Assembly: GCA_964016885.1 (NCBI GenBank)
Contig: CAXHJY010001480.1
Span: forward strand, 1-39,000
Direction: 5' to 3'
DNA: 39,000 nucleotides
Source: Eledone cirrhosa
Taxonomy: Eukaryota
Position 1 is the first letter of the stretch. Every line of letters begins with the position of its first letter. The translations under genes were made by a program, and so were the position numbers. Shown here in pieces: positions 1,763 through 39,000 of this stretch. The notes under the pieces were generated by a model, which was not told the origin of the DNA, searched no databases, and saw only the letters and a list, made by a program, of their open reading frames with translations.

Positions 1763-1825
1763 CTTCCATAGTTGTATGCTCAAATATGGGAGAATCCTAG
1801 TCAAACGAATCTGGGGAAGAATTGG
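1763..1825 (-). CDS. Mini-exon (63 nt) of the tandem-exon gene; contains an in-frame TAG in phase 1 (terminal or decayed exon)
   Basis: Acceptor ttttttcttattttag| and donor |gtaagttgtaatttaaac. Phase-1 reading: (S)NSSPDSFD*. Confidence 0.5.
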
Positions 1826-1992
1826 CTAAAATAAGAAAAAAATAAAAATTAAATGAAGATATACGATTGAACAATAGGCACATAAGTATACATGCAAAAC
1901 CCCACACAAATATAAATACATATATTTATATGTAGAACACGGAGGTTATAGTCGCAGTAGTAGAGCACTCAGTCCATGGACGAGTTTCCTTC

Positions 1993-2173
1993 GAAGTTAG
2001 TTCCACAACAGATAATAAACCATTTTCAAGGACAGGGGTTTCACCTTGCAGATTTCAACTCGAGTGTATGGGCTATAGCCGAAGAACGGTAGCCTTCCGT
2101 TCTTCGGCTATAGCCCAGTTACTCGAGTTGAAAATCCGCAAGGTAAAACCCGTGACCTCTTGGAACTAACTTC
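1993..2173. repeat. Imperfect palindromic element with degenerate hammerhead-like motifs in both arms
   Basis: Outer arms gaagttagttcca/tggaactaacttc; inner arms gggctatagccgaagaacgg/ccgttcttcggctatagccc. Confidence 0.8.
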
Positions 2174-2190
2174 TATATATATATATATAT

Positions 2191-2350
2191 GGTTTCCAAA
2201 AGTCCCATTGTGGTGAATTAATTCTTGAGGACAAGGAAATAAGGAAGGTGGATAACTTGAAGACTTTGGTGAAAGCAAATCCCCCCACAGCTGTTTGAGA
2301 GCTTAAAGGAGATCTAGGAGTAAGCATTAGAAGAGTTTTTGAAAATGTGA
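2191..2350 (+). mobile_element. Mariner transposase N-terminal (HTH) fragment, degenerate
   Basis: Reads GELILEDKE...DNLKTLVKANP..ELKGDLGVS across frameshifts, matching the mariner LED.....L...V.ANP..T.RELA..LGVS pattern. Confidence 0.5.
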
Positions 2351-2370
2351 ATGTTTAAATTATAACTTGC

Positions 2371-2433
2371 ACTGTGTATATGTACAGTCATTCACGAATG
2401 TATCATTGACCGGAGTCTCTACGTGAGGCTCGT
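2371..2433 (-). CDS. Mini-exon (63 nt, phase 1-1), GC donor
   Basis: Acceptor cgttattttttccag| and donor |gcaagttataatttaaac. Reads (Y)EPHVETPVNDTFVNDCTYTQ. Confidence 0.6.
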
Positions 2434-2523
2434 CTGGAAAAAATAACGAAGAAAATAAGGAAAAAGTGAGAGAGAGAGAGGGTTTGCTATTATTTTCTTC
2501 GTTATTTTTTCCAGACGAGCCTC
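2425..2523. repeat. Perfect 34-bp inverted repeat (2425-2458 / 2490-2523)
   Basis: gaggctcgtctggaaaaaataacgaagaaaataa and its exact reverse complement. Confidence 0.9.
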
Positions 2524-36800: not shown

Positions 36801-37181
36801 TCTCAATCAGCCGACACAAACCTACATTTGGCGCAAATTCAATTTTTAACATTCTCATGACCTCTACCGACCAATCAAAATTATTTTGACCACAAGAATT
36901 TTTGCAACACGAATTGGCGCGAAACTTATTTTAATACATCTGGAGCCACTTTTTTCACATAAAACAGGTAGAATTTCCAAAACTAATCAGATTAGAACAA
37001 ACATCAAGGGCGCTCTATCTCAAAATTATTTTTGAAAAGCATTAGAAATGCGCAACCGGTAAAACGTAAAACAAAAAACTGAATACTAACCAATACTATA
37101 AGTAATTTTTACTTATTCCTAATTAAACTATTTTTCACTGGGAACAATTTGTCAGCATTTTCTTTTCCGTTTACCAATATA
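33831..37181. mobile_element. Penelope-like element with long inverted arms (33831-35218 and 35761-37181) around a ~540-bp spacer
   Basis: The arms are reverse complements from tatattggtaaac/gtttaccaatata inward to ctgaagttgggatgattt/aaatcatcccaacttcag. The element sits in a (TA)n tract of the host repeat unit. Confidence 0.9.
35258..35887 (+). pseudogene. Penelope-like (Neptune-like) linker plus GIY-YIG endonuclease, frameshifted in the A-run at ~35573-35580
   Basis: YISTHNP...KSKRQSKSMKNILTHAK..CDRPNCGIC, then FTCASENLIYVLTCAGCREQYVGQTKNSLRQRITVHRSQI...EH...RISKESHFINKYGPRLN. Confidence 0.9.
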
Positions 37182-37650
37182 TATATATATATATATATAT
37201 ATATATATATATAGATATATAGATATATATGTATTTATATAAATGAAACGTTTCAGGACCACGGCGTCTTAGCTCCGTAAATATACATCTACTACCAAAT
37301 TTTCTCTAATCAGGATTAAAGTCGTTATAACTAAACTGTCTTACATACACACGCATACAGAGTGTGCAAGGAGAACCTCACACTCAAACACTCAAAAAAG
37401 CCACCAAACCAACGGATAAACACACACAAACAGTTACGCGGTAATGTTATATGCAACCCAAAATACATATATATATACATTAACATACGCAAAACACCTG
37501 CATTACTTCACTTATATATACACACTATTTTATTCATCAGTTCCAGCATACACAAATATATAATGTAATCTCCATTAGACTTTAATGTTGAAACACGTGT
37601 CATAGTTTTCTGTACAGTCTAATACAGAGTGTGTTTGAAATACAACTTAC

Positions 37651-37716
37651 GTTCTTTGGAGACAGTATCTGTTTGAATATCTGGCTCAGAGACACATTTC
37701 TCTACAGGAGAAACAA
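37651..37716 (-). CDS. Mini-exon type B (66 nt)
   Basis: Acceptor gtattttttcccag| and donor |gtaagttgtatttc. Reads (I)VSPVEKCVSEPDIQTDTVSKE. Confidence 0.8.
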
Positions 37717-38344
37717 CTGGGAAAAAATACGGAAGAAAATAATAGTAATGCTAGAAGACTTTCTTTGGAAGATTTTGTTGTCAATTTGAAGAAATGGTAG
37801 AATAAGGCGTCGTATTTTAAATTAGCTAGAACCATGTAGTTATATATTGTGTGTCTGTAATTATGAGACAAATATGTAGGGTTCCATCTGGGCCTAAAGA
37901 ACAAGCATGTATCATGGTATAACCAAATATGTAGTGCAATGGCTGATCTAGGGGATACGAGGATGAGGTGTATGAACAACGAAGAAAGACTTGAAATAGT
38001 GAAGAAGTATCGGAGGCAATTTTGTTAAAGATTAGAACTCTGATCTGTAACATAATTCCATCTACCGCAATGTATCTAGTGCAACATTCATATTCTCTTT
38101 TTAACCAGATATAATGTCCTTCTTACATAGCTAACTCTGATAATAGGCCTGAAAATGTGTATCTTTACATTTGACCTCATTGTAAGGTCTCTGAGGTTCG
38201 AGGTGAATGAAATGTTTATCCTTGATTATGTTAGGGAGTTTGAAATATAATATTCTAGCCTGAAATAACTAGTTATAAATTTACTGATCAAAACATAAAT
38301 AAGTTTCTGAATAATGAATAGATAATTTTTAAATTATAACTTAC

Positions 38345-38404
38345 TACTTTCAGAACGTGAGGTCTTGAATGTTGCACTTCGAGGAGATAAATATAAAGCG
38401 TTGT
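38345..38404 (-). CDS. Mini-exon type A (60 nt)
   Basis: Acceptor gtttatgttttctag| and donor |gtaagttataatttaaa. Reads (N)NALYLSPRSATFKTSRSES. Confidence 0.8.
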
Positions 38405-38968
38405 CTAGAAAACATAAACAAAATAATAGTAAAACTGTATGTATATATAGAAATATGTTACAAATACAGAAAACAGTGATTAGACTAATTATCTCTGATA
38501 CACTGATAAATTCACCAGGTTCGAACACAAAAAGAACCAAGTTACCAGGTGCTTGCGATATATATATATATATATATATATATATATATATATATATGTA
38601 TTTATATAAATGAAACTTTTCAGGACCAGAGGGTCTTAGCTCCGTAAATATACATTTACTACCAAGTTTTGTCTAATCATGATTACTGTCGTTATAACTA
38701 AAATTTACTCTTACATACACACGCATACATAGTGTGCACAGAGAACATCACACTCACACACGCACACACTGGGATCACACAATCAGAAAGCCACCAAACC
38801 AATGGACAAACACACACAAACAGAGGTGAATAAAATGTTTATTCTTGATTATGTTAGGGAGTTTGTAATATAATAATCTAGCCTTTATTAACAAGTTATA
38901 AATATACTGATCAAAACATAAATAAGTTTCCGAATAATGAATAGATATTTTTTTAAATTATAACTTAC

Positions 38969-39000
38969 TACTTTCAGAACGTGGGGTCTTAAATGTTGCA
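38969..39000 (-). CDS. Mini-exon type A, truncated by the window edge
   Basis: Donor |gtaagttataatttaaa. Reads ...ATFKTPRSES. Confidence 0.75.

Follow-up and report, generated by a model that had tools for sequence, protein, structure and literature searches.

The 39,000-nt stretch of Eledone cirrhosa DNA analysed here (the window) is the whole of contig CAXHJY010001480.1 in the 3.0-Gb genome assembly GCA_964016885.1, positions 1 to 39,000 of the forward strand; it is labelled C1507, and all C-numbers below are contig labels of the same assembly. The window covers the 3′ end of a minus-strand gene, present here as a single allele or a very recent duplicate. The gene belongs to what is probably a lineage-restricted, multi-copy protein-coding family of an octopus-like mollusc, with a predicted product that is a disordered repeat protein whose length would be set by the number of repeat units in the DNA. 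The middle of these genes grew by tandem duplication of whole exon-plus-intron units, and whole genes were duplicated to about 17 loci. Selection purges stops and frameshifts from the repeat exons; amino-acid change is tolerated there and probably favoured.

The window DNA is AT-rich and full of microsatellites. An earlier note, made from the letters alone, had described a hidden minus-strand gene of at least 19 symmetric phase-1 mini-exons, each marked by a recurring 5′ splice motif. This description is borne out. Allowing up to three mismatches, the 17-mer of the donor has 18 matches in the window (17 minus, 1 plus), far above the mean of 0.48 (maximum 4) in shuffled sequences; with two weaker donors, at 29515 and 28100, the minus strand has 19 in all. 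Taking the best polypyrimidine–AG reproduces every length given before for the 18 complete exons (60, 66, 60, 66, 60, 60, 66, 60, 66, 48, 60, 78, 57, 63, 51, 66, 63 and 63 nt). As had been claimed, the phase-1 frame is free of stops in the first 17 of them, and the last one carries a TAG at 1799–1797. The donors read GTAAGT in 16 of 18 cases and GCAAGT in 2. The exons, most of which can be assigned to or derived from a 60-nt A type or a 66-nt B type, are as follows.

38969..39000, minus strand: last 32 nt (3′) of an A-type exon (60 nt) truncated where the contig stops, donor 38968; complete in the C28 sibling
38345..38404, minus strand: A-type mini-exon, 60 nt, phase 1-1
37651..37716, minus strand: B-type mini-exon, 66 nt
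33520..33579, minus strand: A-type mini-exon, 60 nt
33358..33423, minus strand: B-type mini-exon, 66 nt
32609..32668, minus strand: A-type mini-exon, 60 nt
30216..30275, minus strand: A-type mini-exon, 60 nt
29516..29581, minus strand: B-type mini-exon, 66 nt
28803..28862, minus strand: A-type mini-exon, 60 nt
28101..28166, minus strand: B-type mini-exon, 66 nt, GC donor
27398..27445, minus strand: A-derived mini-exon, 48 nt (in frame, 12 shorter), flanks 0.88–0.90 like A
27012..27071, minus strand: A-derived mini-exon, 60 nt
25640..25717, minus strand: B-derived mini-exon, 78 nt (in frame, 12 longer)
24552..24608, minus strand: diverged mini-exon, 57 nt
9671..9733, minus strand: diverged mini-exon, 63 nt, found too in both C18 copies read
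7329..7379, minus strand: A-derived mini-exon, 51 nt
6951..7016, minus strand: diverged mini-exon, 66 nt
2371..2433, minus strand: conserved mini-exon, 63 nt, GC donor, 0/63 differences from two C18 copies
1763..1825, minus strand: last mini-exon, 63 nt, with a copy-specific TAG at 1799–1797 (Tyr codon in 7 paralogs)
660..880, minus strand: terminal exon, acceptor 882–881, normal stop 875–873, then 3′ UTR containing AATAAA at 685; lower end approximate

The 3′ exons of the window are all distinct (18/18). They look like old, diverged copies of the same A and B units, because the similarity of the exon flanks to A or B is 0.9–1.0 on the 5′ side and falls almost to background towards the 3′ end. 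The GC donor of exon 2371–2433 is kept in all nine group-1 copies read, and the diverged copy at C28:28.86 Mb has GT.

Including its repeats, the window aligns at 96–98% to C28:4,638,660–4,673,413, and that copy runs on upstream. It contains 127 exon-like units between 4,548,473 and 4,671,651, of which 123 are intact, one is the exon with the TAG, two are acceptor-dead and one is donor-dead. In most of the array, 60-nt A exons and 66-nt B exons take turns: the intron after A measures about 625 nt, the one after B varies from about 700 nt upwards, and the median intron of the full copy is 627 nt. The 5′ part of the gene, placed beyond the window in the earlier note, is present in this near-identical copy as further units and an ATG exon of 226 nt at C28:4,542,721, with a phase-1 end and the same GTAAGTTATAATT donor. 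Extension of the analysis into this copy yielded the start codon; exon 1 contains no Pfam domain above the cut-off. Splicing exon 1 in silico to the 124 spliceable exons at C28:4.54–4.67 Mb gives 2,636 codons up to the TAG. All but one of the 125 coding exons (124/125) are 48–78 nt long, divisible by three and phase 1-1. The donor is GTAAGT or GTAAGA in 114 of 124 exons. These 124 exons encode 44 distinct peptides, two of which account for 48 of the 124.

The end of the gene differs from the earlier description. The TAG in the 18th complete exon is real but copy-specific, being limited to the window and two near-identical siblings, with a Tyr codon in the 7 other copies where the exon was read. 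That exon is not the last: a terminal exon had been missed, and the normal stop lies two codons into it, one exon beyond the TAG. The TAG costs about 13 residues and sits 34 nt before the last junction; stops so near the last junction usually escape nonsense-mediated decay. In 10 copies read, the terminal exon stops after two codons; in six C18-type copies (five on C18, one at C28:126.8 Mb), Tyr replaces the terminal stop and about 19 more codons follow. At the other end, the region 5′ of exon 1 (C28:4,510,000–4,542,100) holds a short-period repeat with long acidic–basic open frames and an array whose repeats are about 640 bp each. A 2-kb CCA-rich low-complexity tract directly precedes exon 1 on C28, and a similar purine-skewed tract lies beyond the terminal exon (window 1–450).

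Across the genome, exon 1 has 17 matching places (24 candidates scored), with protein identity of 95–100% in 10 and 65–78% in 7; two contain stops. The terminal exon has 21 matching places, 17 of them nearly full length. When these ends are paired by strand, 10 loci can be placed on C28 and 6 on C18; these 16 span 51–224 kb, and the six C18 loci all lie inside 4.3 Mb in mixed orientation. In addition, C28 has one more terminal exon, and C159, C114 and C1507 carry unplaced pieces. The B donor 17-mer has 264 exact genome matches, compared with 1 for a control, and 97 of the 100 matches listed fall inside family loci. Of the 16 loci, seven were read from end to end, two partly (90 of 224 kb; 30 of 103 kb plus the 3′ end) and the others at one or both ends. 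The common plan is an ATG exon of 220–226 nt with a phase-1 end, tens to more than 120 phase-1 exons of 45–78 nt and a short terminal exon.

The amplified unit differs from locus to locus: 60/66-nt doublets of about 1.45 kb are repeated in some copies, whereas a second clade has triplets of about 1.8 kb; 115 distinct A–intron–B doublets were collected from 6 loci. The copy at C18:7.73–7.80 Mb has 71 spliceable exons and an intact open reading frame (ORF) of 1,581 codons that reaches the terminal exon, the sibling at C28:0.09–0.22 Mb has 114 spliceable exons and an ORF of 2,428 codons, and C18:9.38 Mb has 44 spliceable exons, one with a TGA. Intact units number 31 of 36 at C28:34.0–34.1 Mb (the other five are acceptor-dead), 23 of 27 at C28:45.25 Mb, and 4 of 6 at C28:28.8 Mb, where exon 1 is broken. 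At C28:43 Mb, where A-A-B triplets occur, the part read (90 of 224 kb) has 112 units, 108 of them intact. The window, C28:4.54 Mb and C28:0.09 Mb differ from one another at 1–3 of 1,113 exon sites and 13–14 of about 10,000 flank sites. The near-identical siblings differ by blocks of whole units (127 versus 117 units; 124 versus 114 spliceable exons). One codon of exon 37651–37716 reads C, Y and F in the window and the two siblings, which are about 99.9% identical nearby. The array at C18:7735526–7794845 includes twelve B exons with the donor GAAAA for GTAAG, one of them with an in-frame stop, a dead lineage that was still duplicated; the array nevertheless keeps its ORF open. GA was rejected as a working donor: the sites read GAAAA, the +5 G is lost too and one such exon has a stop.

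Selection was assessed on units identified by their intron flanks and homology rather than by the absence of stops, so broken units were counted. The test set comprised 131 distinct exons of 60 or 66 nt, other lengths and low scorers being excluded; among near-duplicates, the window was omitted from the pairwise and stop tests, and the window and its C28:0.09 Mb sibling from the doublet-rate test. Joined in a spanning tree of extant sequences that totals 605 differences, these exons show 2 stops against about 21–25 expected (Poisson P = 1.5e-7), which argues for frame-keeping selection on the proposed gene; one of the two sits in a donor-dead exon. The other two frames contain stops in 23–74 of 74 and 44–56 of 57 sequences. 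In the window's clade there is 1 stop in 84 distinct spliceable exons, compared with simulated means of 5.7 and 5.5 (P = 0.006 and 0.002), and no length indivisible by three among 353 spliceable exons; distinct intron indels are multiples of three in only 6 of 42 cases. Stops and frameshifts are depleted throughout 20–49% exon divergence. The splice dinucleotides of A units changed 2 and 1 times (AG) and 0 and 1 times (GT), compared with about 4–6 changes per neighbouring column. A neutral control is available within the same gene.

11025..23563, no strand assigned: 96-bp minisatellite, 131 copies, intronic, outside the coding model; neutral control

Its open frame contains a stop in 17 of 61 full-length units, against 2 of 131 exons (P = 6e-8). 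The minisatellite was also considered as a giant exon and rejected, with 184–216 stops per frame, the stops in 17 of 61 units and spacings of 93–95 nt. Two siblings contain about 86 and 201 copies of it and two C18 copies 19 and 35; diverged relatives (70–86%) occur on many other contigs.

Amino-acid sequence is kept far less strictly. The pairwise ratio of nonsynonymous to synonymous divergence (dN/dS) over all pairs is 1.09 for A and 1.18 for B exons (0.58–2.12 in subsets). On the spanning tree of the 115 doublets, changes amount to 285/9781 (0.029) at nonsynonymous, 71/3329 (0.021) at synonymous and 1217/64564 (0.019) at deep-intron sites. The synonymous rate is about that of introns (P = 0.34), and the nonsynonymous rate exceeds both the synonymous (P = 0.02) and the intron rate (P = 2e-11); amino-acid change in repeat exons thus runs at about 1.5 times the intron rate. 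In exon 1, two group-1 copies differ at 8 of 53 synonymous and 4 of 161 nonsynonymous sites (P = 0.002), a comparison that shows apparent purifying selection on this exon between the two copies.

Exon 1 encodes 73–75 residues, with Cys14 and Cys28 invariant. Residues 1–45 have a net charge of +11 to +13, a hydrophobic moment of about 0.7, basic runs like nuclear localisation signals and no hydrophobic core; an AlphaFold model places helices at 3–25 and 27–47, and its confidence drops to about 50 past residue 50. No signal peptide was found in 8 of 8 exon-1 proteins by a hydropathy scan only (best 8-residue hydropathy 1.06–1.19). The tail contains 14.9% S, 10.1% T and 9.1% P, is also rich in K, E and D, lacks Trp, has a mean hydropathy (GRAVY) of −0.79 and includes 142 SP/TP sites; it has no membrane-spanning window (best 19-residue hydropathy 0.65).

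The protein, which the earlier note had not recognised, has no homolog for exon 1 in the databases searched. These negatives rest on exon 1, the repeat exons (19–25 residues) being too short for protein searches. Homologs were found among 0 of 75 and 0 of 2,926 candidates (proteins of 133–2,000 residues), ESM Atlas gave no usable match, Foldseek returned no match for the predicted fold, and Pfam gave nothing above the cut-off (PEHE, at E 0.027, is below it). A profile search of 1.84 billion representative proteins produced two matches, repeat proteins whose scores sum 25 or 4 short stretches; these were set aside as chance. No description of the family was found in the literature covered, which leaves out most subscription journals. 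Processed retrocopies were absent among the 21 terminal-exon matches and the 11 of 17 exon-1 matches with downstream sequence read, which was not counted against expression.

The proposed mechanism begins with the duplication of an exon together with its intron, which would place introns of the same phase on both sides and let only exons divisible by three survive. The exon symmetry would thus arise because exon-plus-intron units were duplicated and, being so explained, is no demonstration of combinatorial skipping. Unequal exchange and conversion between units would add and remove them, setting protein length and repeat content in the DNA. A unit that loses a splice site would drop out in frame, and symmetry would permit gain, loss or inactivation without a break of frame. 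The exons would be spliced in largely constitutively, the simpler reading because the splice sites are strong and uniform and the 124 exons give so few peptides; for the latter reason, skipping would mostly alter length. The product would be intracellular and up to about 2,600 residues long. Its basic amphipathic two-helix N-terminus with two invariant Cys may act as a membrane tether or in nuclear targeting, and its long disordered, phosphorylatable S/T/P-rich tail may serve as a multivalent scaffold or spacer, in which the exact sequence would matter less than length and an open frame, with some pressure to diversify.

In comparisons with known systems, the family works most like DAZ and NBPF/Olduvai and is a member of none of DAZ, NBPF and the schistosome micro-exon genes (MEGs). 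In DAZ (primate Y chromosome, AZFc), exon 7 and its intron are tandem-amplified to give a 24-residue repeat in 8–24 copies of polymorphic number, and several gene copies lie in head-to-head amplicons (PMC2322974). Intragenic tandem amplification of an exon-plus-intron unit, variable number and multi-copy genes are all found here; unlike in DAZ, exon 1 of the present family has neither an RRM nor any other Pfam domain and no fold match, there is no known parent gene, the repeat exons are 5–10 times more numerous and of two alternating types, and the loci number about 17. NBPF genes contain an exon-doublet repeat (Olduvai, DUF1220) that formed tandem doublets and triplets before gene duplication, and they are multi-copy and lineage-specific with a disordered product (bioRxiv 10.1101/2021.07.06.450945). 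The tandem exon doublet in a multi-copy family recurs here (115 doublets, 16 loci); however, neither exon 1 nor the one 25-residue exon scanned in Pfam matches Olduvai, both doublet exons are short (60 and 66 nt), one unit coding for about 42 residues, and the absent secretory signal makes furin processing by the usual route unlikely.

MEGs, described as restricted to flatworms, have a signal peptide, 10–20 exons mostly of 15 bp and proteins of up to 189 residues; their exons are mostly short and symmetric, the families expanded, and dN/dS in the repeat part is about 1 or above (PMC4350168; bioRxiv 10.1101/2023.06.21.545858). The family shares with them a coding region of mostly short symmetric exons, an elevated dN/dS in the variable part, a high, MEG-like amino-acid turnover and gene-family expansion. 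It differs in its exons, which are longer, as the earlier note had remarked (mostly 60 or 66 nt), number 44–124 or more, encode 1,000–2,600 residues and derive from one repeated unit, in the lack of a signal peptide, and in its mollusc host, in which the genome carries molluscan haemocyanin arrays. In general, symmetric exons, internal duplication and protein disorder are linked (PMC3632108), and the family fits this link; its distinguishing features are the extreme scale, very recent turnover, excess amino-acid change and lack of a recognisable homolog. Secreted repeat proteins of a sponge and of Ciona have a different gene structure (PMC11703226).

Several points weigh against a functional gene family with the properties proposed above. 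Two loci, C28:46.47 Mb and C28:28.78 Mb, have a broken exon 1, a TGA occurs in one C18 copy in an exon whose splice sites are intact, and the premature TAG lies in the window's own clade. The second clade is partly decaying, since its stop avoidance is not significant alone (1 stop against about 3.9 simulated) and 6 of its 148 spliceable exons break the frame. Gene conversion makes the edges of the spanning tree non-independent, so the P values are optimistic. The synonymous divergence of exon 1 (0.15) is above that of the flanks (0.03–0.06), and a raised synonymous rate may in part lie behind its low ratio. Tail disorder is probable, as read from composition alone. A role in the male germline or gametes, guessed by analogy from the amplicon-like layout and fast evolution, is a tentative suggestion, rather less than an even chance.

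The earlier note had seen in the symmetric exons a combinatorial cassette system reminiscent of MEGs, with regulated or stochastic skipping giving each gene a large isoform pool for recognition or immune-like diversity. Its arithmetic holds, in that nearly all exon combinations keep the frame and among the 517 spliceable exon starts that are in frame, just one is able to create a stop codon across a splice junction, but this is not proof of actual skipping. The excess of nonsynonymous over synonymous and intron change, which resembles that in the mature MEG regions described in PMC4350168, and the distinctness of the 3′ exons of the window speak for such a system, and some units with intact splice sites but a stop or frameshift would need to be skipped for a long product. 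Against this, unit duplication alone accounts for the symmetry, variation is already visible in the DNA as exon and gene number, most exons are near-identical copies, and the donors are as uniform as reported above; without a signal peptide or transmembrane segment, the product would not be displayed outside the cell by the usual route. A cassette system of this kind is less likely than constitutive inclusion, and unlikely overall. A broader version would be an octopod-specific diversifier at three levels, combining about 17 gene copies, exon number that varies at the DNA level and skipping that differs from cell to cell within a set of more than 100 in-frame exons. With positive selection on the repeats, every cell or gamete would have a distinct form of a disordered scaffold inside the cell, and the family would parallel MEGs by convergence while being non-secreted and far larger. 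This version, too, is unlikely.

If instead the family had died recently, or were a satellite-like array amplified by recombination only, its open frames would be inherited from a once-functional gene. Broken copies, the amplification of the donor-dead B exon to 12 copies in one C18 array and the empty search of 1.84 billion proteins would agree with that, and a dN/dS near or above 1 is also the neutral expectation. Such an origin is improbable in view of the depletion of stops and frameshifts across the whole range of exon divergence, the free decay of the 96-bp repeat in an intron of the same gene, the complete ORFs at several loci and the low rate of change at A-unit splice dinucleotides. 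The assembly itself could also have inflated the copy number through uncollapsed haplotypes or mis-joined repeats, leaving the family smaller than it looks. The very few differences between the window and its two siblings would suit this, the window contig is a small, unplaced one, and identical inverted pairs are also seen among the haemocyanin genes; yet one exon exists in three versions, so these are not all alleles of one diploid locus, and other copies differ by 5–27% in exon-1 protein and amplify different units. An artefact is very unlikely as an account of the copies and concerns their count, not the existence of the gene.

Other elements occur in the window and elsewhere in the genome. 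A GIY-YIG endonuclease fragment, which we take to be Penelope-like, lies in an intron of the gene at 35498–35887 on the plus strand (Pfam E 8e-8), and two long flanking arms (about 33810–37180) resemble, by eye, an inverted duplication. A 220-codon stop-free frame at 5101–5763 on the minus strand has no Pfam match and presumably resembles a retroelement C-terminus; intron 1 contains a decayed relative of it. Matches to the molluscan haemocyanin beta-sandwich number 39 in the genome, and most of them form runs of seven units: three arrays at C1:173.7–173.9 Mb, an identical-scoring inverted pair at C26:21.93–22.02 Mb and two lone units on C27. The haemocyanin unit tested gave its best per-stretch scores against 1js8, 4yd9 and 6r83, presumably octopus and squid haemocyanin entries. 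The seven-unit runs, together with the repeat landscape, suggest that the host is an octopod.

To our knowledge, few genes have over 120 coding exons, and the family described here reaches that number from one or two tiny exon-plus-intron units. As an exon-rich orphan family, it is of a type that annotation pipelines overlook. It also offers a natural test of how symmetric exons evolve, with selection on frame and stops, excess amino-acid change, dead exons that are still copied and a neutral repeat within the same gene. Should combinatorial splicing also occur, the family would represent a MEG-like system that arose convergently in an animal other than a flatworm; if expressed in gametes or immune cells, it would be a candidate fast-evolving recognition or scaffold protein in cephalopods.

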